Source: an uncultured Chloroflexia bacterium (lineage in GTDB: Bacteria > Chloroflexota > Limnocylindria > Limnocylindrales > CSP1-4). Taken from it: a stretch of DNA of 64,000 bases. The stretch covers positions 96,001-160,000 of the forward strand of contig CAVTHS010000004.1 of assembly GCA_963734535.1 (NCBI GenBank). The letters run 5' to 3'. Positions 4,613 through 26,209 of the stretch are shown here, piece after piece. A program made the position numbers and the translations under genes. The number at the start of each line of letters is the position of its first letter. The stretch's first letter is position 1. The notes under the pieces are model-generated. The model saw nothing but the letters and a program-made list of their open reading frames with translations, ran no database searches and was not told where the DNA came from.

Positions 4613-6863
4613 CTACCGCCAGCCGCGGACCTCGTCGGGGTAGAGGCGGACTCGCCGGTACGGCTCGCGACCGCGCGAGCGCGAGACGAGGTTCGCCCGC
4701 TCTGCCATCTGGTGCTGGAGCCGCCGGATGTACGCGCTCTGCGGTGCCAGTTCCACGGCCTGCGACTCGCGGACGACCATCCCGATCGCCTCCTCCGTCT
4801 CGAGGAGCGCGGCCTGGCGCGGATCGACCTCCAGGCTGAAGACGGAGGTGAGGCTCGCCTGCATCTGGATCGTCGTGTTCGCCTTCAGGACGTAGATCGG
4901 GAGCGCTCGGCTCTCGGCGTCCCGGATCGTCTGACCCTTCTGGCGATACTCGCTGCGCAGCGTCATCACGACATCGGTCTCGTCGAGATCCCGCGCCACG
5001 ATCACGGGGAGCTGGAGCTCGCGGATCGCCTGCTCGAGACGCTTGCGGCTGATGCCGAACGGGAAGACCCGCAGCGTGGGGAGGATGCCGTGCTCCACGC
5101 GCAGCGCCGGGCCGTCCTCGTCGCGGGCCGCCGCGATCGCCCGATCTGCGAGCGCCTCGTCATCGGCGACGAGGTCGGCCGCGTTCACCGGCCCGGTCCC
5201 CTCTTCCGCCTTGAACGCCTCCAGCGCGCGGCTGGCCTGGTCACGCCACTCGCGGTGGCGGTCGAGCTCGCGGGCCTCGCGTGCGCGAACCTCCGTTGCC
5301 GCGAGGGACGCTGGAGCCGCGCCGGGTGTCGCTGCGGCGCCGGGTGTCGCTGCGGCGCCGGGTGTCGCTGCGGCGACGGATGTGCCTGCCCGCTCGACCG
5401 GGCCGCGGTCGGCGATCTCGCCGGCGACGAACGGTGCGTCGGTGATCGCGAGGCGGCTGGCTGCTCTGTGACTGGGCCTGACGCTCCTCGCGCGGCCGTC
5501 GGGCGGTCCGCCGCCAGGCGGGCCGTCATCCGCCGAACTGCCGCCCACGGGCCCTCGATCGTCGCGATTCGCGATTCGCTCGCCGGGCATCGTCCGGCCG
5601 GATTCGGCGCCGGTCGCGGACCGATCGCCGCCCCCGGACGACCGGCCACCCCTCGATTCGCGCCAGCCGCCGCTCGCGCCCGGGCGGAACGCCGGCGGTC
5701 GGCTGGACCGACCCGCGATCCCCTTCCCAGGTCGCGCTCCGGTAGCTCGTGTCCCCGCGCCAGCCGGGCTCCTGCCGCCAGCCGCCGCCGCCCGCGCCGA
5801 CCAGGCCCGCGAATCGCTCGCGGCCCAGCTGCTCGCGCGGCGACGGCCGTGGCCGCGACTGCGAGCGATGGACGCCACCCTCGTCCTTCCAGCGCAGCTC
5901 CGGCGCGACCGGGTCGCCGCGGAGCATCGCATCGATCGTCTCGCCGACGTCGGCGTGGACCATGACCCGCTCGCGGTCCTGGATCTCCACGATCACGTCG
6001 AACGTCGGCGGCGCCTTGCGCTCGAGGACGCTCTTCTGGGTCCGGCGGCGGCGCGCCTCTTCGTCCCCGAGGGTGACGCTCTGGATCCCGCCGATCAGGT
6101 CGGAGAGCGTCGGGTTGAGCATCAGGTTGTCGAGATTGTTGCCGTGGGCCGTCCCGATCAGCTGCACGCCCCGCTCGGCGATCGTGCGGGCGGCCAGCGC
6201 CTCCAGCTCCGTCCCGATCTCGTCGATGACGATGACCTGCGGCATGTGGTTCTCCACCGCCTCGATCATCACCTCGTGCTGGAGCGACGGCGTGCGGACC
6301 TGCATCCGGCGGGCCTTGCCGATGGCCGGGTGGGGGATGTCGCCGTCGCCCGCGATCTCGTTCGAGGTGTCGACGACCACGACCCGCTTGCCCAGGTCAT
6401 CGGCAAGCACGCGGGCTGCCTCGCGGAGCATCGTGGTCTTGCCGATGCCGGGGCGGCCCATGATGAGGATCGACTTCCCCGACTCGACGAAGTCGCCGAT
6501 GATCTCGATCGTGCCGTAGACGGCGCGCCCGATCCGGCAGGTCAGCCCCACGATCTTGCCGGCCCGGTTCCGGATCGCGGAGATGCGGTGGAGCGTCCGC
6601 TCGATGCCGGCCCGGTTGTCGTCGCCGAACGAGCCGATCTTCTCGACAACCAGGGCGATGTCCGCCTCGGTCACCTCGCGGTCCAGGAGGGTCACCTCGC
6701 TGTCGGGGAAGCGCGCCTCCGGGACGCGGCCCAGGTCCAGCACGACCTCGATGAGCGCGGTCTGGTTCGGCAGGGCATGGATGGCCGCCACGATCTCCGG
6801 CGGCAGCGCGCCGAGGAGCGCGTCGAGGTCGTCGATCAGTTCGCGGGTCGGATGGTCGGCCAT
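4613..6863 (-). CDS. Ycf45/SpoIIIAA-like AAA ATPase with C-terminal R3H domain; apparent frameshift near 5690
   Basis: Walker [10 protein letters not shown], 'DTSNEI', '[14 protein letters not shown]' and 'GTAHG' in ORF 5526-6863; R3H '[22 protein letters not shown]' in ORF 4613-5932. Confidence 0.85.
5321..5374. repeat. 18-bp tandem repeat x3 encoding AAATPG in the ATPase-R3H linker
   Basis: gccgggtgtcgctgcggc repeated three times. Confidence 0.9.
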
Positions 6864-9729: not shown

Positions 9730-10141
9730 GCCGAGGGCCCGGGAGCACCCGGAAGGTGCCGTTCGGGGCGTGGGTCCCGGCGCGGCGGGCTCGGAGCCCG
9801 CTCCGCGATATTCGTGGGCACTCTCGTGGGCGACTCTCGTGGGCGACTCCCCCGGCGCCCACGACCGCCCGCCTCGTGCGCGACATCCGTGGGACGACTA
9901 CCCGGCGCGCCTGACGGCCGATTTGCTCGCCATATGCGTCCCGCTGCTGTTATGCGCGTCTCGCAGCCCGGATCACGGCTCCGCCCGTCCCCCGGCGACG
10001 ACTCCGAGCGTGGCCCGTGCCCACTCGGGGCGCAGACCGCGCGTCCGGCGCGCTTAGCAGTCGCGTGGCTGCTATCCCGGGACGCTCTGCGACGACGCAA
10101 CCCGCGTGTCCCCCGCCCCGGGCCTTCGGTACGATCGGGTG

Positions 10142-10843
10142 ATGCAGGACGACCTCGACGCGCTCGCCGCGGAGATCGCCGCGTGCCGCGCGTGCCCGCG
10201 CCTCGTGGCGTGGCGCGAGGATGCGGCTGGGAACCCGCCGGCACGGTTCCGTGGCGAGCCGTACTGGGCGCGGCCGGTCCCCGGCTGGGGAGACGCCGCG
10301 GCCCGGATCGTGCTCATCGGGCTGGCTCCGGCCGCGCACGGCGGCAATCGCACCGGCCGCGTCTTCACGGGCGACCGTTCCGGGGATTTCCTGTTCGCCG
10401 CGCTCCACCGGGCCGGGCTCGCGAACCAGGCAACCTCGACCCGGACGGGCGACGGCCTCCGGCTCTCTGGCGCCTACGTGACCGCCGCCGTGCGATGCGC
10501 GCCGCCGGCCAACGCACCCACGCCGGAGGAACGCGACCGCTGCGCGCCGTTCCTGCACCGAGAGCTCGCCCTGCTGGCCGACGCACGGGTGATCGTCGCG
10601 CTCGGCGCGTTCGGCTGGGCCGCGGCGCTCCGCGCGATCGAGGCCATCGGCGCTCCGATGCCGCGCCCGCTGCCGCGCTTCGGCCACGGCGTTGAGGTGG
10701 TCGCCGGCCCCTACACGCTCCTCGGCACGTTCCACCCGAGCCAGCAGAACACGTTCACCGGCCGCCTGACCGCCGCCATGCTCGACGCGGTCCTGGCGCG
10801 AGCGGTCGCGCTGGCGGGCGCAGCCCGCGGCGACCTCCGGTAG
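10142..10843 (+). CDS. Uracil-DNA glycosylase family 5 (UdgB-like, Fe-S)
   Basis: CxxCPRL, '[19 protein letters not shown]', 'HPSQQN'. Confidence 0.92.
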
Positions 10844-13228: not shown

Positions 13229-13366
13229 GCGAATGGACGGTCGATCGCCACCGCGAGCAGCGGTCCGGGATCCTCGATATGAGCGCGATTGCCCGCCCGC
13301 CCGACCGGCCGCCCAGGCGCGCCCGCCCGACTCGCGTGCCGCGCGCTCCTGCTACGATCCGGCCGC

Positions 13367-13882
13367 ATGGACGGCGTGGTGCTCGTGCTCAACCAGAACT
13401 ACGAGCCGCTGAACGTCTGCAACGTGCCCCGGGCATTCCGCCTCGTCTTCGGGTTCAAGGCGGAGGTCGTGGAGTACGACCACCAGACGTTCCGGACGCC
13501 TCGCGCCGCCTACCGTGCGCCGTCGGTGATCCGCCTCCAGCACCAGGTCCGCAGGCCCCGTCCGCGCGTCAAGCTCAGCCGTCGCGAGGTCTTCGCCCGC
13601 GACCACCACACCTGCCAGTACTGCGGGCGCCAGGGCAACGACCTCACGCTCGACCACGTGGTCCCGCGTCACCGCGGCGGTCTCCACACGTGGGAGAACC
13701 TGGCGACCGCCTGCCGCACCTGCAACCACCGAAAGGGCGGCCGCACCCCCGAGGAGGCCCGCTTTCGCCTGCTGCGCCCACCGTTCGAGCCGCGGAGTGA
13801 CGTGTACTCGATCTTCACCCCGTTCCTGGCGGACGTCCGGAACGAGCCCTGGCGCGACTACCTCTTCCTCGGCAAGAATTGA
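13367..13882 (+). CDS. HNH endonuclease
   Basis: 'VLVLNQNYEPL', 'RD..CQYCG', 'TLDHVVPR..GG..WENL..C..CN..KG'. Confidence 0.92.
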   Translation: MDGVVLVLNQNYEPLNVCNVPRAFRLVFGFKAEVVEYDHQTFRTPRAAYRAPSVIRLQHQVRRPRPRVKLSRREVFARDHHTCQYCGRQGNDLTLDHVVPRHRGGLHTWENLATACRTCNHRKGGRTPEEARFRLLRPPFEPRSDVYSIFTPFLADVRNEPWRDYLFLGKN

Positions 13883-15510
13883 CGCCGCCCGAGCCCGCTG
13901 CCGGGGCAGACGCACCAGAAGGACCAGCGCCGGCGGCCGACTCGCCGCTCGAGGCAGGGGCAACGGCCGATCCGTCGCCCGGTCCGCGCGACCCGATCCC
14001 GGCCGCCGTGCGCGCCATCGCGGCGACGCTCCGGACCGCCGGTCACGAAGCGCATCTCGTGGGCGGCTGCGTGCGCGACCTCCTGCGCGGCGTCGAGCCC
14101 GCCGACTGGGACCTGACCACGAACGCGCGACCGGAGCAGGTCGTCGCGCTCTTCCCGGGCGCTCGGTACGAGAACCGGTTCGGGACGGTCGAGATCGACG
14201 AGGACGGCGGGACCTACGAGGTCACGACCTACCGGCACGACGGCCCGTACACCGACCACCGCCGGCCGGATGCCGTCATGTTCGGTGAGCGGCTCGACGA
14301 CGACCTGGCGCGGCGGGACTTCACGGTGAACGCGATGGCGCTCGACGTGGGCGCGGGGGCCGGGGTCGAATCGCGCCCAGGGCCCGGCGCGGAACCCGGG
14401 TCGGCAGAACCGGGGGGCGAGCCCGGCACGGACGACAGCCCGGAACACGTGGCCGGACCCCGTGGGATCCATGACCCGTTCGGCGGACGGGCCGACCTCG
14501 CCGCGAGGCTCCTGCGGGCAGTCGGCGATCCCGGGGCACGGTTCCGCGAGGACTCGCTGCGCATGCTGCGCGCGGTCCGGTTTGCGGCGACGCTCGGCTT
14601 CGCCGTGGAGGAGCGAACGCTCGCGGCGATCGAGGCGAACGCGCCGCTCGCGGGCTCTCTCTCCGGCGAGCGGGTGCTCGCCGAGCTGCTCACGCTGCTC
14701 ACGGCACCCGTGCCCTCCGTCGGGCTGCGGCTCGCGCAGGCGACCGGCCTCCTTGCGGCGATCGCCCCGGAGCTGGCCCGGCAGCGGGGCGTGCCGCAGG
14801 GCAAGGTGCCCGGCGAGGATCTCTGGGACCACACCTGCAGAACGGTGGACGCCGCGCCCCGGCCGCGGCCCGACGAGCCGCCGCTGCTCCGCCTTGCGGC
14901 GCTGCTCCACGACGTCGGCAAGCCCGCGACCTTCGCGGACGGCCACTTCGTGGGCCACGACGCCGTCGGCGCATCGCTCAGCGAGGCATGGCTCACGGAG
15001 CTCCACGCGCCGCGGTTCCTGACGGCTGACACCGCGAACCTGGTCCGCCACCACATGTTCGCCTACGACGAGAGCTGGACCGACGCGGCCGTGCGCCGAT
15101 TCATTCGTCGCTGCGGCGCGACCGCCGTCGACGACCTCCTGGACCTGCGTGCGGCCGACAACGTCGGGAGCGGGCTCGCGGCGGAGGTCGACGGCCTGGA
15201 ATCGCTGCGGGCGCGATGCCACGAGCAGCTGGAGGCGCGCGTGGCGCTGGACCTGTCCGGCCTCGCTGTCGACGGCGACGACCTGATGAAGGCCCTCGAC
15301 ATCCCCCCCGGGCCGGCGGTGGGCGGTCTCCTCGATCGCCTGTTGGAGATGGTGGTCCTCGACCCGATGCTCAACGACCGTTCGCGTCTGCTTACCATGG
15401 CGCGTGAGCTCGTGGCGCCCGGCATCGTCGCGCCCGGGAACGAGACACTCGGTGGCGGGGATGCCGGTGGCGGGGATGCCGGCGCCTCGGACGACATGGG
15501 GACGGCGTGA
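13879..15510 (+). CDS. cca: tRNA nucleotidyltransferase (CCA-adding class II) with HD domain
   Basis: 'VGGCVRD..DWD', 'DLARRDFTVNAMA', 'EDSLRMLRAVRF', 'LLHDVGK'. Confidence 0.88.
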   Translation: MTPPEPAAGADAPEGPAPAADSPLEAGATADPSPGPRDPIPAAVRAIAATLRTAGHEAHLVGGCVRDLLRGVEPADWDLTTNARPEQVVALFPGARYENRFGTVEIDEDGGTYEVTTYRHDGPYTDHRRPDAVMFGERLDDDLARRDFTVNAMALDVGAGAGVESRPGPGAEPGSAEPGGEPGTDDSPEHVAGPRGIHDPFGGRADLAARLLRAVGDPGARFREDSLRMLRAVRFAATLGFAVEERTLAAIEANAPLAGSLSGERVLAELLTLLTAPVPSVGLRLAQATGLLAAIAPELARQRGVPQGKVPGEDLWDHTCRTVDAAPRPRPDEPPLLRLAALLHDVGKPATFADGHFVGHDAVGASLSEAWLTELHAPRFLTADTANLVRHHMFAYDESWTDAAVRRFIRRCGATAVDDLLDLRAADNVGSGLAAEVDGLESLRARCHEQLEARVALDLSGLAVDGDDLMKALDIPPGPAVGGLLDRLLEMVVLDPMLNDRSRLLTMARELVAPGIVAPGNETLGGGDAGGGDAGASDDMGTA

Positions 15511-15905
15511 TCGAGCAGCTCCTCCGGGCGGAGAACGCGCTCGCCCTCGGCCTTCTCGACCAGGCCGAGCAGATCTACGCGCAGACGTTGGCCCATGACC
15601 CCGCGAATGCGATCGCGGTCGTGGGACTCTCGCGCGTCGCCCTCGAGCGCGGCGACGAACGCGCGTCCCTGGACCTCGCCCGGCGCGCCCTCTCGATCGA
15701 CCCGGAGAACGCGCAGGCGGGCCGGATGGCCGATCGGCTCGAGGAGGTCATGCGCGAGCGCGGGGACGCGGTCCCGCCAGCGGCGATCCTGCGGGTAGTC
15801 ATCGGATCCTCGGCGATCCCGCACACCGATTCTCCGACGAGGGCCGCCGAGCCCGTCGCGGCACCGAAACGCGGCTTCCTGCGCCGCCTCACCGGGAGAT
15901 CCTGA
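15507..15905 (+). CDS. Tetratricopeptide repeat protein
   Basis: 'AEQIYAQTLAHDPAN', 'ARRALSIDPEN'; overlaps the cca stop (GTGA). Confidence 0.75.
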   Translation: MIEQLLRAENALALGLLDQAEQIYAQTLAHDPANAIAVVGLSRVALERGDERASLDLARRALSIDPENAQAGRMADRLEEVMRERGDAVPPAAILRVVIGSSAIPHTDSPTRAAEPVAAPKRGFLRRLTGRS

Positions 15906-15906
15906 G

Positions 15907-16935
15907 ATGCGCGTGCTCGTCACCGGCGGCGCCGGCTACGTCGGCTCGATCTCGGTCGAGGCGCTCGTCGCGGCGGGCCACGAGGTGGTGGTCCTCGACG
16001 ACCTCTCCACGGGGCACCGGGACGCGCTCCCGGATGGCGTCCGCCTCGTGCAGGGCAGCTACGGCGATGGGGCGGCGGTCGCGTCGCTGCTCGCGAGCTC
16101 GCCGATCGACGCGGTCCTCCACTGCGCGGCACGCTCGCTCGTCGGCGAGTCGATCGCGAACCCGGCGCTCTACTACCGCGAGAACGTGGCGGGGGGCGTC
16201 GCCTTCCTGGAGGCGCTTCGCGTGGCGGGCATCCGCCGCCTGGTCTTCAGCTCGACCGCCGCGGTCTACGGGACGCCGGCCAGCATCCCGATCCGCGAGG
16301 ACGCGGTGCTTGCCCCGATCAACCCGTATGGGGAGACGAAGCGGACGTTCGAGGGTGGCCTTCGCTGGTACGCGGCTGCCTACGGAGTGCGGAGCGTGAG
16401 CCTGCGCTACTTCAACGTTGCCGGCGCGTCCGAACGCAACGGCGAGGTTCACGTACCGGAAACGCATCTCATCCCCAACGTGCTGGCCGCGGCCGATGGG
16501 CATGCCGCGCTCACCGTGTTCGGCACCGACTACCCGACGCCCGACGGAACGTGCGTTCGCGATTACCTGCACGTGGAGGACCTCGCGCGCGCCCACGTGC
16601 TCGCGCTCGAGGCCACGGCGCCGGACGATCTGCGCACGGCCGCGAATCCCAGCCTGCCCGGGGAAGATGTCGGTGCGGCGGCGCTCACCATCAACCTGGG
16701 GAATGGGGGCGGCTTCAGCGTCCGCGAGGTGCTCGCGGCGGCCGAGGCCGTCGTCGGTCGCCCGATCCCGCACGCGATCGGCGAGCGGCGCGCGGGCGAT
16801 CCCCCGGTGCTCGTGGCCGATGCCAGCCGCGCGGGCGAGATCCTCGGCTGGCGGGCCGAGCATCCCGACATCATCGAGATCGTCCGGTCCGCGTGGGCGT
16901 GGCGCGCGGCCCACCCGGACGGCTATCGCGCCTGA
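15907..16935 (+). CDS. galE: UDP-glucose 4-epimerase
   Basis: 'TGGAGYVG', YxxxK (YGETK), 'LRYFNVAGA', 'DGTCVRDYLH'. Confidence 0.95.
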   Translation: MRVLVTGGAGYVGSISVEALVAAGHEVVVLDDLSTGHRDALPDGVRLVQGSYGDGAAVASLLASSPIDAVLHCAARSLVGESIANPALYYRENVAGGVAFLEALRVAGIRRLVFSSTAAVYGTPASIPIREDAVLAPINPYGETKRTFEGGLRWYAAAYGVRSVSLRYFNVAGASERNGEVHVPETHLIPNVLAAADGHAALTVFGTDYPTPDGTCVRDYLHVEDLARAHVLALEATAPDDLRTAANPSLPGEDVGAAALTINLGNGGGFSVREVLAAAEAVVGRPIPHAIGERRAGDPPVLVADASRAGEILGWRAEHPDIIEIVRSAWAWRAAHPDGYRA

Positions 16936-17137
16936 CCCCGAGCCGGTCATTGCGCGAGCGACCCGAACGCACCCGCGGCATCCCTGCAACCGAATCGAAA
17001 CGGAAGCGCGTCCCGGGTGTCACTGACCAGGACGCAGGGCTGCAGGTACGGTCATCCTCCCGGGACGCTGTCCCCGGCGGCAGGCCTGCTGGCCGCGTCG
17101 CTGTCCTGCGGGCCACCGCCCAGCTGAGGACGAACCC

Positions 17138-17389
17138 ATGAGCGCACTCGACCTGCAGGCCTCCATCTCCTCCCACCTGCGCATGCCCCGCCAGGTTGCC
17201 GTCGCGAGCCGGCTCGAGACCGGCACCGTCGTCTGTGACGCCTGTGGCTGCCGCCTGACCACCCGCGACAGCGTCGACGACAGCGGATTCGGCGGCGCTC
17301 GCACCTGGTGGCACTTCGCCGGCCACGCGGGTCGCGACGCCCGCGGGTGCACGGTCGATTGCGTGGAGATGGCCCACCGCCTCGCCTGA
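17138..17389 (+). CDS. Small Cys/His-rich putative zinc-binding protein
   Basis: CxxCxC..H..CxxxC..H pattern; GAGG RBS upstream; GC3-rich codons. Confidence 0.65.
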   Translation: MSALDLQASISSHLRMPRQVAVASRLETGTVVCDACGCRLTTRDSVDDSGFGGARTWWHFAGHAGRDARGCTVDCVEMAHRLA

Positions 17390-17577
17390 ACCCGGGCCGG
17401 TGTTCGGCCCGTCACACGTCCTCGAGCGAACCCTGGACGCCCCGGACCTTCCTGGCCGGGGCGTTCGTGTGCTCCACGCGGGCACTCCGCCGTGCGCCCG
17501 GCACCCGTCGCGCCGGGTTGAGCTCGCGCGCGGGCAATCCGCCGGGGTCGCGATGACCGGCGCGTATGATCGCGGCC

Positions 17578-18282
17578 ATGAAGCCAGAACCGCGCGCGTT
17601 GCGCCCGCAGGCATTCGGGAATCGTCGCGTCAGGGATGTTGCGGATCCGGTGATCGAACCAGCCTGGGATGGCGTCCGGGTCCTTGCCCATCTCGACGTC
17701 GCAGCGGCACGGGCGGCGATCCGCGATTCGAGCGGCGACGACCTGACCCGGGACCACGCGCCGATCGCCCGCGCGCTGCTCGCCGCGCTCACCGCGGACA
17801 GCGCCATCGTCGATGGCTACCTCACCGACCAGGCGACGCGCGCAAGCGAGGGTCGCGCGATCGTGACGAGCGAGATCCCGTCGCTCAGCGAGCATGCGAG
17901 CCAGTTCTTCCTGGGCCGGCAGGGCTCCGAGCTGCTGGGCGGACGCGGCCGTCCTGGCCGAACCGACCTTGGCCGGGCGGCCGACGAGCAGGAGCGGCTC
18001 GAGGACGCGCCGGTCGCGTTCGTCGCCGTCGACCTGGTCGAGCTCGATGGCGTGCCCTTGTTCGAGATCCCGCTCCTGGAGCGCAAGCGGCTCCTGGAGA
18101 GCGCGCTCGGGGAGGGCGACCTCGTGCGCCGGACTCCGTACGTTCGCGAGCCGGCCGGCACGTTCATCATCACCTGGCGTTCGTTCGGCTTCGGCGGCCT
18201 CGCCTACAAGGCCGCGAACAGCCGCTACCTCCCCGGCAGCGCCAACGACGACTGGTGCATGACGCCGATGCCGCGCCGCTGA
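17578..18282 (+). CDS. ATP-dependent DNA ligase adenylation-domain homolog lacking catalytic residues (pseudo-ligase)
   Basis: 'EPAWDGVR', 'IVDGY', 'VDLVELDG..PLLERKRLLE', 'GGLAYK..SRYLPG..W'; TATGAT -10 lies 7 nt before ATG 17578. Confidence 0.8.
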   Translation: MKPEPRALRPQAFGNRRVRDVADPVIEPAWDGVRVLAHLDVAAARAAIRDSSGDDLTRDHAPIARALLAALTADSAIVDGYLTDQATRASEGRAIVTSEIPSLSEHASQFFLGRQGSELLGGRGRPGRTDLGRAADEQERLEDAPVAFVAVDLVELDGVPLFEIPLLERKRLLESALGEGDLVRRTPYVREPAGTFIITWRSFGFGGLAYKAANSRYLPGSANDDWCMTPMPRR

Positions 18283-18393
18283 CGATGGCGGCCGGCGCCG
18301 AGGACCGCGACCGGCGCTTGTAGCCGCGGCGGTCGAGCCGGATCGCGACCGCCTCGCCGCGGACGATCCCGGCCGTCGTGGTACGGTGCGTCC

Positions 18394-19839
18394 GTGCCCG
18401 CTTCCCTCCTGACCCCGGCCATCTCGGCCGAGCTCCAGCGCCTGGGACACGCCGACATCATGGTCGGCATTCCCAGCTTCAAGAACGCGGCGACGATCGG
18501 CCATGTCGTGCGCGCCGCGCAGGCCGGGCTGGTCCAGTACTTCCCGGACCTTCGGCCCCTGCTCGTGAACGCGGATGCCGGGTCGCCTGACGGGACGCAG
18601 CGCGTCGTCGCGGAGACGGAGCCGCCCGACTACGTCGAGCGGATCCTGCTCGTGCGACCCACCAACCGCCTCGAGCGCCTGACCCTGACCTATCCCGAGG
18701 TGAACGGGATCGGCGGCAAGGGGGCGGCGCTTCACACGATCTTCGAGATCGCGGCCGCGCTCGAGGTCCGCGCGCTCGTGGTGGTCGACTCCGACCTTCG
18801 CTCGATCGGCCCTGAATGGGTCGAGCTCCTCTCGGGGCCGATCCTCAAGGGCGGCTTCGATTTCGTCACGCCGCTCTACGCGCGTCACAAGTACGACGGC
18901 ACGATCACGAACACGGTCACCTACCCGCTCACCCGGGCGCTCTACGGCCGGCGGATCCGACAGCCGATCGGGGGCGACTTCGGGGTGTCCGGCGATCTCG
19001 TCCGCCACTACCTCGCCCAGGAGGACTGGACCCCGGAGGTGAGCCGTTTCGGGATCGACATCTGGATGACGACCCACGCGCTCACCGGCGGCTTCGCCGT
19101 CTGCGAGGCGCGACTCGGCGCGAAGATCCACGACCCGAAGGACCCCTCGGGTGACCTTGGGCCGATGTTCCGCCAGGTCGTCGGGACGATCCTCGCCATG
19201 GCCGGCCGCCACCCCGAGGCCTGGCTCGACGTCCACGCCAGCCACGAGATCCCGGCCTACGGCTTCGAGCGCTGGGTCGAGCCCACCCCGCTCCACGTCA
19301 ACACGCTGCGCCTGCTCTCCGAGTTCGACGCCGGGCGGCTGACGCTCGCGCCGACGTGGCGAGCCATGCTCGCGCCGAACCATGCGAGCGCCGCCATCGA
19401 GATCTCGGAGGTTGCCGGGGAGCTTGCCGAGGCGGCCGCGAGGCGCCTCGGCCTGGGCGGCGAGGCCGGCCCGGACCACCCCGTCTCGACGGACGAGATG
19501 TCCGAGGCGGTTGCGCCCTACTGCTTCCCGGACGAGCTGTGGGCCGGCATCGTCTACGACCTGGTCGTCGCGGCGCACGCGAAGGTCCTGCCCCTGGAGA
19601 CGCTCGTGGCCGCGCTCGTCCCGCTCTATTTCGGGCGGGTCGGCAGCCTTATCGTGGAGGCCCGCCACATGGGCCAGGCCGACGCGGAGGAACGAGTGGA
19701 GCGCCAGGCGCGCGCCTTCGAGCTTCGCAAGCCGTATCTCGTCGAGCGCTGGAATGCGGCGGAGGAGGCGCGCATCGCGGCGGATGCGGCTGCCTTGGAT
19801 GCCTCGGCGAGCCTCCGCGCCGGCGAGGCCGCAGGGTGA
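18394..19839 (+). CDS. GT-A glycosyltransferase, glucosylglycerate/mannosylglycerate synthase-like
   Basis: 'VGIPSFKNAATI', 'DAGSPDGT', 'GKGAA', 'DSDLRSI', 'Y.RHKYDGTITN', 'RQPIGGDF', 'FGIDIWMT'. Confidence 0.8.
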   Translation: MPASLLTPAISAELQRLGHADIMVGIPSFKNAATIGHVVRAAQAGLVQYFPDLRPLLVNADAGSPDGTQRVVAETEPPDYVERILLVRPTNRLERLTLTYPEVNGIGGKGAALHTIFEIAAALEVRALVVVDSDLRSIGPEWVELLSGPILKGGFDFVTPLYARHKYDGTITNTVTYPLTRALYGRRIRQPIGGDFGVSGDLVRHYLAQEDWTPEVSRFGIDIWMTTHALTGGFAVCEARLGAKIHDPKDPSGDLGPMFRQVVGTILAMAGRHPEAWLDVHASHEIPAYGFERWVEPTPLHVNTLRLLSEFDAGRLTLAPTWRAMLAPNHASAAIEISEVAGELAEAAARRLGLGGEAGPDHPVSTDEMSEAVAPYCFPDELWAGIVYDLVVAAHAKVLPLETLVAALVPLYFGRVGSLIVEARHMGQADAEERVERQARAFELRKPYLVERWNAAEEARIAADAAALDASASLRAGEAAG

Positions 19840-21806
19840 CGCCCCGGCCGCCGCTCCCCGGCCGGATCCTGATCCCGGTCGCGAACCCCGCCACTGCAGA
19901 GGAGCTGATCCGCATCGGCGCGGCACTCCTCGATCCGCGCTCCGGCGAGCTGACCGCGCTCGGGATCGTGGAGGTCCCGGAGGAGATGCCGCTCTCCGAG
20001 GGCGCGACGAAGGCGCGCCAGGCCCGCAGGTTGCTCCAGAAGGTGCTCGACTACGCACCGGAGGGTACGCACGTCCGCCCCGTGGTCCGGATCGGGCGCC
20101 GCGCGGCCGAAGGGATCGTGGAGGCTGCCATCGAGCTCGAGGCGGACCTCGTCATCTTCGGCTGGGGCGGCCGCGTCGGCGGTCGTTCCACGAGAAGCGC
20201 GAGAGCCGCGGCGAAGGCAGGGTCCGGCGACGCCGACGCGGCGGTCCCGGCCGCTTCCGTCTTCAGCCCGACCATCGACGCGGTGGTCCGCGAGTCGCCC
20301 TGCGATATCGCCGTCGTCAAGCAGCGCCCGATGACCGACATCCACCGGATCCTGGTTCCCGTCCGCGGCGGACCGCATGCGGAGCTTGCCCTCGACTTCG
20401 CCGACGCACTCGCCCGCCGGCACGGCGCCCGCGTCACGGTGCTCCACGTCGTGCCACCCGGCCTGACCCCCGCGGTCCGGACCCAGGCGGAGCACGCACT
20501 GGCCCTCTTCCTGAAGCAGCACGTGCGCGGCCATGCCGACGGGCTCCTGCGCGAGGCCCCGAACGTGCGGAACGCGATCCTTCGCGAAGCGGACAAGTCC
20601 GATCTCGTGATCATGGGTGCGTCCGCCGCGCCCGAGGGTTCCGTCGACGACAACTTCCTGTTCGGCGTCCTCCCCGAGACGATCGCCGCGCGCGCCAGGC
20701 CGCCCGTCATCGTGGTGAAGACGCGGGAGCGGATCGACACGGCGACGTTCGAGGAGCTCGCCGCTCGGGCCGAATCACTCGCCGCCGCCGAGCGAGCCGC
20801 GGAGGAATCCCGGGCCGTGCCCGCCCGTGTCGAGCGCTGGTTCGGCGAATCGAACTTCCACCACGCGGAGTTCCGCGACCTTCGACGCCTCGTCGCGCTC
20901 AAGGAGAAGCAGGGCGTTACCGTGAGCCTCATCTTACCGACCCTGAACGAGGGGGCGACCATCGGGCCGATCGTGCGCCGTGCCCGGATGCTGCTCATGG
21001 AGGCCGTGCCGCTCGTGGACGAGCTGCTGGTGATCGACTCGGCATCCGATGACAGGACGTGCGAGATCGCGGCCCGCGAGGGCGCCCGGGTCGTGCAGCA
21101 CGCGGACGTCCTGACCCGCTACGGCTCCTACCGTGGGAAGGGCGAGTCACTCTGGAAGAGCCTCTACGAGTCCTTTGGCGACATCGTCGTGTGGTGCGAT
21201 ACCGACGTCCGCAACTGGCACCCGCGGATGGCCTACGGGACCCTGGGGCCGCTCCTCGTCGAGCCCCGGATCCAGTACGTCAAGGGCTACTACCAGCGCC
21301 CCATCGTGGAGGGCGGCGTGCTGCGCGAAGGCGGCGGGGGCCGCGTCACCGAGCTGGTCGCGCGGCCCCTGATCAACCTGTTCTACCCGGACCTCTCGGG
21401 GTTCATCCAGCCGCTCGCCGGCGAGTACGCCGGGCGCCGAAGCCTGCTCGAGTCGATCCCCTTCTTCACCGGCTACGCCGTCGAGATCGGGCATCTCATC
21501 GACATCGCGGAGCGGGCCGGCCTGGAGGCGCTTGGCCAGGTGGACCTGGAGCGCCGCATCCACCGCAACCAGGAGCTCGAGGGTCTCTCGCGGATGAGCT
21601 TCGTGATCATCCAGGCCGTCATGAAGCGGCTGGAGGAGCGCCGCCGCGCCCGGCTCTTCGCGGAGATGGGATCGACGATGAAGCTGCCTCGTTCGGGGGC
21701 CGACCGGCTGGGCCTCGAGGTCATCGAGCTCGCCGACCGCGAGCGCCCGCCGATGGTCCGCATCCCCGAGTACCTCGAGAAGCGCGCCGCGAACGAGGGC
21801 GGATAG
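19836..21806 (+). CDS. gpgS: Tandem universal stress protein domains fused to glucosyl-3-phosphoglycerate synthase
   Basis: Two USP domains ('ILIPVAN', 'ILVPVRGGPHA'); GpgS motifs 'PTLNEG', 'GKGESLW', 'GGRVTELVARP', 'QPLAGEY'; start overlaps the previous stop. Confidence 0.88.
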   Translation: MTPRPPLPGRILIPVANPATAEELIRIGAALLDPRSGELTALGIVEVPEEMPLSEGATKARQARRLLQKVLDYAPEGTHVRPVVRIGRRAAEGIVEAAIELEADLVIFGWGGRVGGRSTRSARAAAKAGSGDADAAVPAASVFSPTIDAVVRESPCDIAVVKQRPMTDIHRILVPVRGGPHAELALDFADALARRHGARVTVLHVVPPGLTPAVRTQAEHALALFLKQHVRGHADGLLREAPNVRNAILREADKSDLVIMGASAAPEGSVDDNFLFGVLPETIAARARPPVIVVKTRERIDTATFEELAARAESLAAAERAAEESRAVPARVERWFGESNFHHAEFRDLRRLVALKEKQGVTVSLILPTLNEGATIGPIVRRARMLLMEAVPLVDELLVIDSASDDRTCEIAAREGARVVQHADVLTRYGSYRGKGESLWKSLYESFGDIVVWCDTDVRNWHPRMAYGTLGPLLVEPRIQYVKGYYQRPIVEGGVLREGGGGRVTELVARPLINLFYPDLSGFIQPLAGEYAGRRSLLESIPFFTGYAVEIGHLIDIAERAGLEALGQVDLERRIHRNQELEGLSRMSFVIIQAVMKRLEERRRARLFAEMGSTMKLPRSGADRLGLEVIELADRERPPMVRIPEYLEKRAANEGG

Positions 21807-21809
21807 CGG

Positions 21810-23093
21810 GTGCCGGCGGAGGATGACGGGCCTGGCGCCGCCACGGCTGTCCGCGCGAGTGTCGGCCCGCGCGGCCGACCGCTCACCGTTCTCGTCGCGC
21901 CGGACTCCTTCAAGGGGTCGCTGACGTCCGTCGAGGTGGCGCGGGCCCTCGCGTCCGGCTGGGCGCGCGCTCGCCCGGACGACCGCCTGGTCCTCGCGCC
22001 GCTCGCCGACGGCGGGGAGGGGACGCTCGTCGCCATCGAGGCCGCTGGCGGCTGGACGTGGCAGGAAGCCGAAGCGCACGATCCGCTGGGCCGGCCGCTC
22101 ACCGCGAGGTGGCTCCGCAGCACCGACGGAACCCGCGCGGTCGTGGAGCTCGCGGCGGCATCCGGCCTCTCGCGACTGTCGCCCGCGGAACGGGATCCCG
22201 CGGGCGCCTCGACGTACGGGACCGGAGAGGTGCTCCGTGCGGTCCTCGACGCGGGGGTCAGGCGGATCGACCTGGGCGTCGGCGGCAGCGCGACCACCGA
22301 CGGCGGTCTCGGCATCCTCGCGGCGCTTGGGCTCGCGATGACGATCCAGCCGGCGGTTGCCGTCCACCTGGAGGAGCTGGACCCGCGCCTCGCGGAGGTC
22401 TCCCTGCGAATCGCGTGCGACGTGACGAACCCGCTCCTGGGGCCGCGCGGCGCAGCAGCGGTCTACGGGCCGCAGAAGGGTGCGAGCCCGCCCGACGTGC
22501 ACGAGCTCGACGGGGCGCTCGGCCGCTGGGCGGATGCCCTCGAGGCCGCAACCGGTCGCCGCGAGCGCGACACGCCCGGGGCCGGCGCGGCCGGCGGGGC
22601 CACGTTCGGGCTCGCCTGCCTGCGCGACCGCTTTGCAGGGTTCGCCATCCGGCCCGGTGTCGAGCTCGTGATGGACGCCGCGGGCTTCGCGGCGTCGCTC
22701 GCGCGGGCCGATCTCGTCGTCACCGGCGAGGGCCGGATCGACGGCCAGACCGCATTCGGCAAGACCGCGCTCGGCGTGGCCCAGCGAGCCGCCGCGGCCG
22801 GGGTCGGGTGCATCGCCGTCGGCGGCGGCGTGGAACCGGACGGGATCCTGGCGCTTGCCGGTGTCGGCGCGATCGCGGTGCCGGTGGCAGAGCGCCCGCA
22901 GTCCGTCGAGGAGGCGATGGCGGCCGGCGCGGCGCCCCTCGAACGCTGCGGCGAGCGCCTCGCGCGGCTGGTCGGGATCGGGCGGGACATGTCTGCCCCG
23001 GATACGCGTTCGCCGCGCGTCCCCGGACATGGCCAGGTCGTGATCCAGGACAACGCACACGACCCTCGCGCGGAGTTCGAGAAGCACTCGTGA
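21810..23093 (+). CDS. glxK: Glycerate kinase (GlxK/GarK family)
   Basis: 'APDSFKGSL', 'ADGGEGT', 'GGSATTDGG', 'GAGAAGG', 'TGEGRID.QT..GK'. Confidence 0.92.
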   Translation: MPAEDDGPGAATAVRASVGPRGRPLTVLVAPDSFKGSLTSVEVARALASGWARARPDDRLVLAPLADGGEGTLVAIEAAGGWTWQEAEAHDPLGRPLTARWLRSTDGTRAVVELAAASGLSRLSPAERDPAGASTYGTGEVLRAVLDAGVRRIDLGVGGSATTDGGLGILAALGLAMTIQPAVAVHLEELDPRLAEVSLRIACDVTNPLLGPRGAAAVYGPQKGASPPDVHELDGALGRWADALEAATGRRERDTPGAGAAGGATFGLACLRDRFAGFAIRPGVELVMDAAGFAASLARADLVVTGEGRIDGQTAFGKTALGVAQRAAAAGVGCIAVGGGVEPDGILALAGVGAIAVPVAERPQSVEEAMAAGAAPLERCGERLARLVGIGRDMSAPDTRSPRVPGHGQVVIQDNAHDPRAEFEKHS

Positions 23094-23941
23094 GGGCGCG
23101 GCTTCCGACGCCCGCGGGACGACGCTCGCGCCGCCGGCCCGACCCCGCAGTCACCTGGGCCCGCAGCCTGCGTCGTCGCCGGCCCGGGCTCGTCGAGTTC
23201 ATGATCGAGCGGCTGAGCGGCCTCTACGGCGTCCCGGCGCCCGCGCAGCGCCTGGACCCGGTCAGCGAGCTTGTCCTCACGATCCTCTCCCAGAACACCG
23301 CCGACCTGAACTCGGAGCGTGCCTTCGAGGCGCTCCGCGCGGCCTACCCGTCGGGCGCGCCGGTCACGACCCACCGCGTGGTCGGGCCCGACGGAGCGGA
23401 GGCCCCGCCGGAGGGTTGGGGTGGCATCGGGCTGGCGCCCGGCGCGCCGCCGGACTGGTCGGCGGTCGAGGATGCCGACGTCGGCGCCGTGATCGACGTC
23501 ATCCGGATCGGCGGGCTTGCGAACCAGAAGGGGCCGCGGATCCAGGCGGCGCTGCGCACCATCCGCGAACGCAGCGGCGGCTACGACCTGGGCTTCCTTG
23601 CCGCGCTGCCGCCCCGCGACGCCCGCGACTGGCTGGTCGCGATCCCGGGGATCGGGCGCAAGACCGCGTCGATCGTGCTGCTCTTCTGCTTCGGGATGCC
23701 GCTCATGCCCGTCGACACGCACGTTGAACGCGTGAGCAGGCGGATCGGGCTCGCGCCGCCGTCGGCGGGCCCGGACGAGCAGCACGAGATCTATGCGCAC
23801 CTCCTCGCCCCCGACCAGTTCTACGCGGCCCACGTCCTGCTGATCCAGCACGGCCGCCGGACCTGCGACGCCCGCCGCCCCGCCTGCGACCGCTGCCCGA
23901 TCGCCCCTCGCTGCCGCTTCTTCGACCCGAAGGCTGCCTGA
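23090..23941 (+). CDS. nth: Endonuclease III family DNA glycosylase (HhH-GPD, Fe-S)
   Basis: 'ILSQNT', HhH 'IPGIGRKTA', 'PVDTH', C-x6-C-x2-C-x5-C. Confidence 0.88.
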   Translation: MRARLPTPAGRRSRRRPDPAVTWARSLRRRRPGLVEFMIERLSGLYGVPAPAQRLDPVSELVLTILSQNTADLNSERAFEALRAAYPSGAPVTTHRVVGPDGAEAPPEGWGGIGLAPGAPPDWSAVEDADVGAVIDVIRIGGLANQKGPRIQAALRTIRERSGGYDLGFLAALPPRDARDWLVAIPGIGRKTASIVLLFCFGMPLMPVDTHVERVSRRIGLAPPSAGPDEQHEIYAHLLAPDQFYAAHVLLIQHGRRTCDARRPACDRCPIAPRCRFFDPKAA

Positions 23942-24015
23942 GGGGAAGCGGCGGCCGACGAGCTTCCTCACGCGTCCCCGGCATCGCCTGCACGAGCGTG
24001 GGCTATCCTCCGAGC

Positions 24016-24738
24016 GTGCTGATCCCCGGTGGGCCGGGCGGCCGCGAACGCCCGGCGCGACTCCTCCTGGTCGACGACGACGCGAACCTGCTGGTCGTCC
24101 TCGCCGAGCAGCTGCGCGCCGACGGCTACGAGGTGGCGACGGCGCGCGACGGCATCGAGGCGCTGCGCCGCCTGGAGAATTCCTGGCCCGACCTCGTCCT
24201 GCTCGACATGATGATGCCGCGCCTCGACGGGATCTCCCTCGCGCGCGAGATCAAGGCCCGCGCCGACCTTCCGATCATTGTCCTGACCGCGATCGACGCC
24301 GCCGACTCGAAGGCGGAGCTCCTCGACGAGGTGGCCGAGGACTACGTCACGAAGCCGTACCACTACCCCGAGCTGCGAGCACGGATCAACCGCGTGCTTC
24401 GACGCCTGGGCGACCGCCTGCCGGGCCAGCGGATCGTGCTGGGACCTGAGCTCGCGCTCGAGCTCGGCCGGCGCGCCGCGACGGTCAACGGTGCGGACGT
24501 GTCGCTGACGCCAACGGAGTCAAGGCTCCTGTACGCGCTCGCTGCCAACCTGGGCAAGACCGTCACGACCGAGACGCTCGTGGCCCGAGGCTGGGCCGAC
24601 ACGGACGGTGCCGATCCCTCGTACGTCTGGGTCACGATGCGCCGGCTGCGGCAGAAGATCGAGCCCGACGCGAACCGCCCCCGCCACCTGATCACCGTCC
24701 GCGGGATCGGCTACCGCCTCGAGGCGGATGCGAGGTGA
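24016..24738 (+). CDS. OmpR-family response regulator
   Basis: Receiver 'LVDDD', 'LLDMMMP', 'KPY'; winged helix 'LTPTE..LRQKIE..TVRGIGY'. Confidence 0.92.
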   Translation: MLIPGGPGGRERPARLLLVDDDANLLVVLAEQLRADGYEVATARDGIEALRRLENSWPDLVLLDMMMPRLDGISLAREIKARADLPIIVLTAIDAADSKAELLDEVAEDYVTKPYHYPELRARINRVLRRLGDRLPGQRIVLGPELALELGRRAATVNGADVSLTPTESRLLYALAANLGKTVTTETLVARGWADTDGADPSYVWVTMRRLRQKIEPDANRPRHLITVRGIGYRLEADAR

Positions 24739-26209
24739 TCCCCTTCCGGATCCGGATCCTGGCCGCCCTGCTGATCGCGGCGCTGGCACCGCTCTCTGCG
24801 TTCGGCGCGCTGCTCGTGATCACCGGGCGGCCGGACAGTGACGGCAGCCTCTTCCGGATCCTGCTCACGTCGTTCGTGATCGCCGCGCTGGTCGGCCTCG
24901 GAATCGCCTTCGTCGTGGCCGGCAGTCTCACCGCACCCCTTCGAGCCCTTGCCACGGCCCTCGACCGGATCGCGGCGGGCGACACGAGCGCGCCGCTCCC
25001 CGCTCTTGCGGACGACGAGCTGGGCCGTCTCGCGGAGCGCCAGAACCAGCTCGCCGGCGACCTCCTGCGCCGCAACCGACAGGTTGCGAAGGTCGTCGAC
25101 GCGGTTGGCACCTACTCACCACGCGAGGGCGCCGACCGCCTCGTGGACCTCGCGATCGCCGATGCGCGGTCGGCGTTCGGACTGATCGACGCTCGGATCG
25201 TGCTCGGCGACCCGTCGGACATCCCCATCGAGGAACGCGTCCCGGGCGACCCACTGCCGGTGCGCGCAGACCTGCTGGCCGGTGCCGAGCCGCTCGGTGC
25301 GCTCGTCGGCCACGCTTCTGCGACGGCGCGGTGGGATCGCGCCGACCAGGACCTCCTCGAGCTGTTCGCGGCGGTCGTTGGCGTCGGCCTGCGCAACGCG
25401 GAGCTGTTCGCCCGCGTGGCCGACCAGAACGACCGGCTCCGGGAGCTGGACGCGGCGAAGGACGACTTCCTGCGCGGCGTCAGCCACAACCTCCAGACGC
25501 CGCTGGCCCGGATTCGCGCCTACGCCGATCAGCTGGCTGCCGAGGTCCCCGACCGACGCCTCGGGATCATCGCCGAGCAGAGCGACCGGCTGTCGCGGAT
25601 GGTGCGCCAGCTCCTGACCGTCAGCCGGCTGGACTCCGGCGTCCTCCGCCCCATTGCCGAGGTCTTCGCGCTCGGACCGCGCGTCCGGCGTGCGTGGGAG
25701 GCACTCGGTGCAGTCGGGGTCCCGTTCACGCTCGACGATCGCGCCGGCGGCTGGCTTGCCCTCGCCGACCCCGACCAGGTGGACCAGGTGATCTGGGGTC
25801 TGCTCGACAACGCGGTGAAGTACGGGGCAGGGTCACCGATCACGGTGAGCGTGTCGCTCGTCCGCGGCGAGGGCGACGCGGAGGGCGGTGCCGAAGGGCG
25901 GCCGGCGGGCGGCGGCACCCTGCGGATGCGGGTCGCGGACGCGGGACCCGGGATCACCGACTCCGATCGCGGGCGCCTCTTCGAACGCTACGCGCGGGGC
26001 ACGCTTCTCGGCGCCGAAGGCACGGGCCTCGGCCTCTACGTCGCGCGCGAGCTGGCGCGCGCCAACGGCGGCGACCTGCTGCTATGCCCGCTGGACCGGA
26101 TGTCCGGCGATCAGCCGACGGGGAACGCGCGGGCTCGGTCGACGCGTCGGCCGCGACCGGCGCTGCGTTCACGCTGTCGCTCCCGGCGGAATCCCCCACC
26201 GAGGGATAG
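24735..26209 (+). CDS. HAMP-GAF sensor histidine kinase; apparent frameshift near 26080-26160
   Basis: Two TM segments, HAMP, 'SHNLQTPL', 'LLDNAVKY', 'DAGPG', 'GTGLGL'; the terminal 'GAAFTLSLP' is in the -1 frame ending at 26209. Confidence 0.85.

Follow-up and report, generated by a model that had tools for sequence, protein, structure and literature searches.

A lysine-less, ligase-like protein family in one class of Chloroflexota: a putative pseudoenzyme related to the adenylation domain of LigD

The closest described relative of the protein discussed here is the ligase domain of Mycobacterium tuberculosis LigD (PDB 1VS0, 6NHZ), a nucleotidyltransferase (NTase) domain with the ordered motifs I, III, IIIa, IV and V. 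The excerpted text of a review (PMC8656161) assigns roles to its active-site residues: Lys481 is the nucleophile, Arg501 and Arg629 contact the gamma-phosphate, Glu530 contacts the ribose via water, Glu613 serves the catalytic metal, and Lys635 and Lys637 serve the alpha-phosphate and the transition state. On the adenosine side, the same text has Glu479 and Lys618 contacting adenine, Trp482 making a backbone contact to adenine, and Arg486 contacting the ribose. Here, we describe a gene from an uncultured Chloroflexia bacterium (NCBI GenBank assembly GCA_963734535.1, contig CAVTHS010000004.1, positions 96,001 to 160,000 of the forward strand; this whole stretch of 64,000 nucleotides is called the window, and its coordinates count from its first letter), which belongs to a class that we take to be Limnocylindria. 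The gene encodes a protein of 234 amino acids (aa), hereafter the ligase-like protein, that has the predicted fold and the motif order of the LigD ligase domain and has the adenine and ribose contact residues in common with it. Unlike LigD, the ligase-like protein lacks the Lys nucleophile, the Glu residues that bind metal and the lysines of motif V; the OB, phosphoesterase and polymerase domains are missing as well, and the stretch from motif III to motif IIIa is longer by about 41 residues. Minimal ATP-dependent ligases (LigC-type and Lig E) are small as well and have the same NTase domain core. However, these enzymes keep all catalytic motifs and the OB domain, whereas the ligase-like protein has neither.

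Pseudoenzymes, among them the pseudokinases, are conserved homologs of enzymes that remain under selection while lacking the canonical catalytic residues, a definition found in the excerpted parts of PMC10211241 and PMC7586955. The aligned sequences place the ligase-like family within this definition: its catalytic residues are lost throughout the family and its gene is under purifying selection. It is a new instance of a pseudoenzyme, not a member of a described pseudoenzyme family; our literature search found no paper on a bacterial pseudo-ligase of the ATP-dependent DNA ligase family, on a ligase-domain family without the lysine, or on the gene of the window. On balance, we lean towards reading the ligase-like protein as a non-catalytic descendant of the LigD NTase domain, a pseudoenzyme with a binding role. 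Such a protein would not self-adenylylate and would not seal DNA, and would act by binding instead.

The G+C content of the window is about 72%, so chance long open reading frames (ORFs) abound; between 15000 and 27000 (12 kb) there are 59 of at least 80 aa. The frame at 17557–18282 (+) has G+C fractions of 0.74, 0.53 and 0.87 at codon positions 1, 2 and 3, like the coding signature of the surrounding genes. Two starts are possible for this ORF, at 17566 or at 17578. Because the Met at 17578 is invariant across 28 aligned relatives and is where most relatives start, 17578–18282 is taken as the coding sequence (CDS), and the in-frame ATG at 17566, which falls within a –10 hexamer discussed below, is probably not the start codon. 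A search for fused forms turned up a single protein (481 aa, with 37% of the query covered), and none of six longer database matches carried a credible second domain.

Pfam model PF01068 (ATP-dependent DNA ligase domain) matches residues 27–230 with 35.6 bits against a cut-off of 26.2, and is the sole Pfam family at E ≤ 10. The OB domain (PF04679) was not matched at that threshold, and the protein ends 8 residues past the motif V Trp. In NCBIfam, LigD-type models score best yet stay far under their cut-offs (TIGR02779, 48.4 bits against 227.75; PRK09632, 47.6 against 989), so that the protein falls outside the LigD family by these models; among solved structures, the M. tuberculosis LigD ligase domain is nearest in sequence (PDB 1VS0, E 1e-7). 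An AlphaFold2 model built from an alignment of 72 family members has a mean pLDDT (predicted local distance difference test) of 85.9 and a pTM (predicted template modelling score) of 0.79, with 166 of the 234 residues at 90 or above; the blocks at residues 91–140, which contain the insertion, fall to 39–57. When this model was compared with the PDB, Foldseek gave 404 matches at E ≤ 10, 118 of them at E ≤ 0.001, and all of the top 50 but one, an mRNA capping enzyme, are ATP-dependent DNA ligases. Archaeal ones lead (E 1.5e-12), and LigD 1VS0 has E 8e-11 and a TM score of 0.63 on the query. By this model, the product of the gene has the fold of a ligase NTase (adenylation) domain. ESM Atlas holds clusters of its own kind only, named as ligase-domain proteins.

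Alignment of the ligase-like protein to LigD 1VS0, residue by residue, locates the equivalent of each motif (Table 1). Motif I reads FEGKWDG in LigD and IEPAWDG in the ligase-like protein, which replaces the Lys by Ala. In motif III, DGE becomes DGY; in motif IIIa, AFD becomes AVD; in motif IV, EGVIAK becomes GGLAYK; and in motif V, the two Lys that follow the Trp in LigD are both gone (WCMTP). Motif IIIa follows motif III at a spacing of 71 residues, against 30 in LigD. This extra segment is Gly/Arg-rich, coincides with the low-confidence part of the AlphaFold2 model and has a few conserved positions within the closer relatives. An original prediction, made from the letters of the window alone, had described 17578–18282 as a real ORF encoding a ligase fold with each of these motif changes and without the OB domain. 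The codon-position signature (0.87 at the third position against 0.53 at the second) and the invariant Met bear out the ORF, while PF01068, the 1VS0 alignment, AlphaFold2 and Foldseek agree on fold and motifs. The insert that it placed after motif III is there too, although its size is about 41 aa net instead of the proposed 60 or so.

The loss is not a peculiarity of the window's copy. The residue roles reported for LigD were mapped via the 1VS0 alignment and counted in 66 genomic members. At the nucleophile position (Lys481), Leu (27) and Ala (26) predominate, followed by Val (4), His (3), Phe (2) and single cases of Gly, Arg, Ile and Gln; Lys does not occur. Arg is likewise never found at the Arg501 equivalent and in 7 of 66 members at that of Arg629. 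The motif III position of Glu530 holds Tyr (55), Phe (5), Trp (2), Val (2) or His (2) and never Glu, and Glu is kept at the Glu613 equivalent (motif IV) in only 2 of 66. In motif V, Lys occurs in 0 of 66 at either the Lys635 or the Lys637 equivalent, which are Met and Pro in the window copy. In contrast, the equivalents of Glu479 and Trp482 are kept in all 66 members, that of Arg486 in 63, and that of Lys618 in 64 as Lys and in 2 as Arg. The motif I Gly is invariant, as is the Asp of motif IIIa, which follows Val (47), Ile (15), Thr (3) or Leu (1). Of 72 database members, a single one carries Lys in motif I, and the rest have A, L, V, H, Q, Y, G, R or F there. The motif I position thus reads as a site that is no longer selected for Lys. 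As aligned, the phosphate, metal and nucleophile half of the predicted pocket is dismantled, and now hydrophobic or variable, while the adenosine half is intact. In total, 22 columns are invariant among the 66 species-level genomic members, among them the polar residues E27, D79, D152, D157, E168, R169, K170, R171, R184, N214 and Y217. With its adenosine contacts kept and its phosphate, metal and nucleophile contacts lost, the family amounts to a natural experiment on the NTase fold without its chemistry.

The family is large. Of 8000 proteins scored in a word-indexed search, 784 reached E ≤ 1e-3, mostly of about 235 aa; the best 120 of the 784 are nearly all 229–260 aa long, with identities down to 53%. 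Those that have a public name are called "ATP-dependent DNA ligase", "LigD" or "hypothetical". In an exhaustive search of 50%-identity representatives, 854 proteins had E ≤ 1e-3; this number fell to 168 at a threshold of 1e-10 and to 41 at 1e-30. The two ligase names lead to over-counted ligases and over-counted capacity for non-homologous end joining (NHEJ) in a lineage that is abundant in soil and freshwater. Among species-representative genomes, a relative is encoded in 213 of 274 pattern matches, and 80 loci were retained. Nearly all of these are titled as metagenome-assembled genomes of Chloroflexota or Candidatus Limnocylindrales; of three loci labelled otherwise, two (L060, L073) share the gene neighbourhood and one (L055) is too short to tell. 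Within the window genome's own class, a match at E ≤ 1e-10 was obtained in 281 of 301 genomes and, counting those of high quality alone, in 148 of 154. This threshold also admits cross-matches to true LigD, whose frames of about 900 aa score up to about 93 bits, so that the true prevalence is slightly lower. In the f2 family of the class, with genomes of about 1.1 Mb, the gene was matched in 1 of 12. In a phylum-wide sample searched at E ≤ 1e-18, 40 of 46 class genomes match besides the window's own, while 354 genomes of the phylum outside the class gave 2 matches only, both of them LigD (frames of about 920 aa, 70–72 bits). As far as these searches reach, the family is confined to one class of Chloroflexota.

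Ratios of nonsynonymous to synonymous substitution (dN/dS, by the NG86 method) are 0.14–0.47 in all 91 pairs formed by the window gene and 13 close relatives; synonymous distances are crude in genes so rich in G+C at the third codon position (GC3), and no pair comes near 1. These ratios indicate that the gene is under purifying selection. The original prediction had proposed a repurposed pseudoenzyme rather than a decaying ligase, and had named as the opposite case close homologs that retain the Lys next to a window copy in neutral decay. The lack of the Lys in all but one of the relatives counted, the intact ORFs, the dN/dS values and the presence through most of the class side with the former and against the latter. 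In one soil RNA library, contigs from relatives cover portions of the gene at a depth of 2–3.6; such contigs show neither transcript ends nor strand, DNA carry-over is possible, and they are not evidence of expression.

How might a ligase domain without its chemistry be of use? As the adenine and ribose contacts are near-invariant while the phosphate side is lost, our tentative preference is for a small adaptor or sensor that would bind an adenosine-containing ligand without reaction. Several points weigh against this proposal or against the breadth claimed for the family. The argument for an adenosine pocket combines a sequence alignment with the contact list of the review, and the conserved Glu, Lys and Arg could serve fold stability alone. 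In ligases, the aromatic residue of motif IIIa stacks on the adenine, and this residue is aliphatic here in nearly all members. An invariant helix, LERKRLLE, which we return to below, is of a type conserved in ordinary ligases too. Furthermore, three genomes counted as positive in the class tally (G029, G047 and G179; E 1e-14 to 1e-17) have no family member near the glycosyltransferase gene that usually follows it, and the class tallies of the ligase-like gene, of Ku and of the paralog described next include a few genomes marked unpublished. Finally, the gene has been lost from some close relatives that keep its surroundings, so that it is dispensable there.

A substantive alternative, unlikely in our estimate and compatible with the sensor reading, starts from the ancestry of the protein. 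The window's genome has a canonical ATP-dependent ligase on contig 11 (150 bits to PF01068) and a full LigD, with phosphoesterase, ligase, OB (PF04679) and polymerase domains, adjoining Ku on contig 2. The motif I of this LigD is FEPKWDG, and the EPAWDG of the window protein is the same motif with the Lys replaced. Because of this correspondence, and because the best NCBIfam matches are LigD models, we infer that the ligase-like protein descends from the NTase domain of LigD. Given this origin, it might be a non-catalytic accessory of NHEJ that docks on the C-terminal arm of Ku, on LigD or on DNA ends, acting as a scaffold, decoy or regulator. As a separate observation on the ligases of this genome, a LigC-like canonical ligase with the motifs EPKWDG, DGE, DGVIAK and WIKVK lies on contig 4 at about 194822–195389 (minus strand; locus L083); its frame shifts between motifs IIIa and IV, so that either the assembly is wrong at this point or the gene broke recently.

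The NHEJ alternative also draws on a second, independently derived lysine-less ORF in the same genome, located between Ku and LigD (contig 2, 22658–23398, minus strand; 5659–6399 of locus L100). This Ku-adjacent paralog resembles the target family: it consists of the NTase domain only (about 230–250 aa), appears derived from LigD, with 33% identity to the NTase domain of the neighbouring LigD, and has its motif I Lys replaced. It has a GC3 of 0.88 and a weak PF01068 match, and matches the profile of the target family with a probability of 98.2% (E 3.7e-14). Its motif I is EPWWPG in 11 of 11 sequences from different genomes, and its motif III is DVT or DGT. In a comparison by eye, a Ku match lay within about 1.1 kb on the same contig in 28 of the 29 best places of the paralog, with G134 as the exception and one unpublished genome left out. 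The paralog differs from the target family in forming a separate clade, in lying beside Ku and not beside sugar genes, in having Arg for the motif IV Lys and in lacking the long insert. In a 45-row tree, the target family (19 rows) forms one clade (100/100) and the Ku-adjacent lysine-less group (8 rows) another (100/100), while a third group, made up of Ku-adjacent short ligases from a different family within the class, still has the Lys (ELKWDG); the root of this tree is unplaced and the two lysine-less families are not shown as sisters. Judging from these alignments, the class has at least two separate stand-alone proteins made of a LigD NTase domain without the Lys, one of them tied to Ku. 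We found no description of the Ku-adjacent paralog either. Bacterial NHEJ usually comprises just Ku plus LigD, and together the two families raise the prospect of non-catalytic accessory factors in it; the interest of either dead domain would rise sharply if it proved to be an NHEJ factor.

A Ku-binding surface on the ligase domain has a precedent in M. tuberculosis, where, according to the excerpted text of PMC13717202, the C-terminus of Ku contacts D522, K579 and L580 of LigD. In our alignment, K579 and L580 correspond to R175 and L176 of the LERKRLLE helix of the ligase-like protein. Since this helix is conserved in ordinary ligases as well, the contact is a precedent and not evidence for docking. 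Of 121 class genomes, 112 have Ku; in the f2 family, where the ligase-like gene is mostly missing too, the count is 0 of 5. However, nearly every genome of the class has both Ku and the target, which makes their co-occurrence uninformative, and we set aside phyletic correlation with Ku as evidence. Moreover, the ligase-like gene never adjoins Ku or LigD in the loci examined (in the window's genome both are on another contig), and with the two lysine-less families in separate clades, function is not simply transferable from one to the other. One speculation, to which we attach a low probability, would join the two: the class would have made a dead stand-alone LigD NTase domain twice, both being NHEJ factors that dock on the Ku arm or on DNA ends and perhaps sense adenine nucleotides. 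They would then be a bacterial counterpart of the non-enzymatic scaffolds of eukaryotic end joining, and the first pseudo-ligases described.

In 75 of 79 related loci, the hexamer TANNNT lies 6–7 nt before an in-frame start codon (ATG or GTG) of the ligase-like gene; an additional locus is too near its contig end. Of all ATG/GTG sites in those loci, 290 of 21,197 (1.4%) have this arrangement. This agrees with the original prediction, which had given the gene a –10 of its own. The commonest forms are TATGAT (the one in the window), TATCAT, TACGAT, TAGGAT, TAGCAT and TACAAT; as the hexamer varies yet keeps TA..AT, the in-frame ATG that it includes in the window does not account for its conservation. 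A two-hexamer promoter scan gave 0 sites, and no operator or –35 element is shared upstream in the 75 loci: the –10 alone is conserved. Leaderless mRNAs typically have a –10 this close to their start codon, and its conservation suggests that the ligase-like gene has a leaderless transcript. The arrangement is a clean example for the annotation of promoters and starts in high-GC uncultured bacteria. In distant relatives (L033, L040, L048, L056, L070, L074 and others), a short element, GATGATAG or GATCATAC, recurs 15–25 nt ahead of the –10 and, in L033, includes an in-frame ATG. An Rfam scan of 15000–25000 gave no match at E ≤ 1.

A hexamer and start of the same kind precede the downstream glycosyltransferase in 69 of 78 loci, the response regulator in 26 of 33 and GalE in 14 of 60, and were found for none of the glycerate kinases (0/67), 83-aa upstream ORFs (0/28), CCA-adding enzymes (0/49) or HNH genes (0/53). 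The predicted units are thus the ligase-like gene alone, which would be transcribed as a leaderless mRNA, and then glycosyltransferase, USP-GpgS (a fusion of universal stress protein (USP) domains to glucosyl-3-phosphoglycerate synthase) and glycerate kinase. Read-through from the ligase-like gene into the glycosyltransferase may occur, as the scan found no terminator-like site on the + strand after the ligase-like gene.

These genes are at the heart of another alternative, which we consider improbable: that the ligase-like protein serves the glucosylglycerate pathway as a regulatory or sensing subunit, binding a nucleotide or nucleotide sugar and controlling the glycosyltransferase, USP-GpgS or glycerate kinase. 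The glycosyltransferase lies downstream on the same strand in 78 of 80 loci that span 40–94% protein identity, with an extra 1–1.7 kb in between in about 11–13 of the 78. GalE, ligase-like gene, glycosyltransferase, USP-GpgS and glycerate kinase stay together as a block throughout the class, which is the synteny with gpgS that the original prediction had suggested checking, and the small f2 genomes are without all three of the ligase-like gene (1/12), the glycosyltransferase (0/5) and a GpgS above the cut-off (0/5). However, small genomes lose many genes, and this joint absence is weak. The wider block, from HNH through the CCA-adding enzyme and GalE to the kinase, is syntenic as well, so adjacency does not identify a partner, and the glycosyltransferase mostly has a –10 and start of its own. 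In addition, the genes are uncoupled in both directions and strict co-occurrence does not hold. In G655, the ligase-like gene is intact, shows every hallmark of the family and is flanked by the CCA-adding enzyme and the glycerate kinase, with the glycosyltransferase not matched and no GpgS above the cut-off, both of which were found in a control genome. Conversely, in G047, GalE is followed directly by the glycosyltransferase, and G179 (a single 4.2-Mb contig), G029 and G266 have the glycosyltransferase with no family member in the fetched flanks. The original prediction had placed the gene at the head of a glucosylglycerate operon: the same-strand adjacency stands, while the position as operon head is not supported. 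On present comparisons, the gene is a neighbour of the glucosylglycerate genes and not a demonstrated part of their operon.

That the protein is still an enzyme, with a relocated nucleophile or with non-covalent nucleotidyl-transfer or hydrolytic chemistry, strikes us as very improbable. Many polar residues are invariant in the 66 members, and pseudoenzymes with migrated catalytic residues are mentioned in the excerpted text of PMC10211241. However, most of these invariant residues belong to structural ligase motifs that LigD has too, and all seven phosphate, metal or nucleophile positions were lost together. ATP-dependent ligases also need the OB domain for the closed conformation of adenylylation, and the ligase-like protein has none. 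Lastly, a decaying ligase pseudogene or a chance ORF, however common spurious ORFs are in this GC-rich DNA, is refuted by conservation: the ORF is intact and of conserved length in related genomes, its GC3 is 0.87, PF01068 is above its cut-off, dN/dS stays below 0.5 and 22 columns are invariant in 66 genomes.

Table 1. Coordinates in the window of the ligase-like gene, its motif equivalents, the upstream hexamers and the neighbouring genes
Feature	Position	Strand	Basis or remark
Ligase-like CDS, 234 aa plus stop	17578..18282	+	GC3, invariant Met, PF01068, model, Foldseek
Motif I equivalent, E-P-A-W-D-G-V-R	17656..17679	+	Glu, Trp, Gly and Arg kept, Lys replaced by Ala; alignment to 1VS0
Motif III equivalent, D-G-Y	17812..17820	+	Alignment to 1VS0
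Family-specific extra segment, about 41 aa beyond LigD	17833..18000	+	Spacing in 1VS0 alignment; pLDDT
Motif IIIa equivalent, V-D (F-D in ligases)	18028..18033	+	Alignment to 1VS0
Motif IV equivalent, G-F-G-G-L-A-Y-K	18187..18210	+	Metal-binding Glu gone, adenine-contacting Lys kept
Motif V equivalent, W-C-M-T-P	18253..18267	+	Both lysines gone; alignment to 1VS0
–10-like hexamer TATGAT, 7 nt before ATG	17565..17570	+	Conserved in relatives
–10-like hexamer TACGGT, 6 nt before GTG (18394) of glycosyltransferase	18382..18387	+	Same arrangement in 69/78 loci
UDP-glucose 4-epimerase GalE	15907..16935	+	TIGR01179, 351 bits against cut-off 262
83-aa Cys/His-rich ORF between GalE and ligase-like gene	17138..17389	+	tblastn matches in at least 28 loci
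481-aa GT-A glycosyltransferase, distant relative of GpgS and mannosylglycerate synthase	18394..19839	+	Pfam, NCBIfam
USP-domain and glucosyl-3-phosphoglycerate synthase fusion	19836..21806 (start approximate)	+	PF00582, PF00535, NF010496
Glycerate kinase	21810..23093	+	PF02595, 375 bits; TIGR00045, 347 bits
HhH-GPD/EndoIII-like glycosylase, after glycerate kinase	23096..23938	+	Family matches

The neighbours named in the original prediction (glycosyltransferase, USP-GpgS, kinase, EndoIII-like and two-component genes) were all recovered by family matches, with a response regulator and a histidine kinase, a two-component system, following in the same neighbourhood. The glycosyltransferase scores 23.4 bits with PF21969 (cut-off 27) and 54 bits with the NCBIfam GpgS model (cut-off 262). 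It is 66–97% identical across 65 loci, with about 180 invariant columns, has a leaderless-type start, and its C-terminal part of about 200 aa has no family match. We considered MggA of mannosylglucosylglycerate synthesis as its identity and rejected it: MggA is described as GT4/GT1 in the excerpted text of PMC3736172, and the window protein is of the GpgS/mannosylglycerate synthase type. USP-GpgS reaches 366 bits with NF010496 (cut-off 262) and carries its universal-stress-protein domains at the N-terminus. In one sub-lineage, the gap between the ligase-like gene and the glycosyltransferase holds an ORF for a GNAT acetyltransferase of about 450 aa (L057, 3812–5170, +), and similar ORFs were seen by eye in L048, L065, L066, L076 and L080. 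Upstream lie a UDG-family gene (10058–10843) and an HNH endonuclease gene overlapping that of the CCA-adding enzyme (13283–15510), so that genes of a DNA/RNA repair type are interleaved with sugar genes in the window.

PADLOC and PHROGs hold no match for the ligase-like protein, the Ku-adjacent paralog or the 83-aa ORF, and the last has no Pfam or NCBIfam match either. The pattern of this small ORF is CxxC ... H..GH ... C...C, and in contigs of two RNA libraries the corresponding stretch of relatives has a higher depth than its surroundings.

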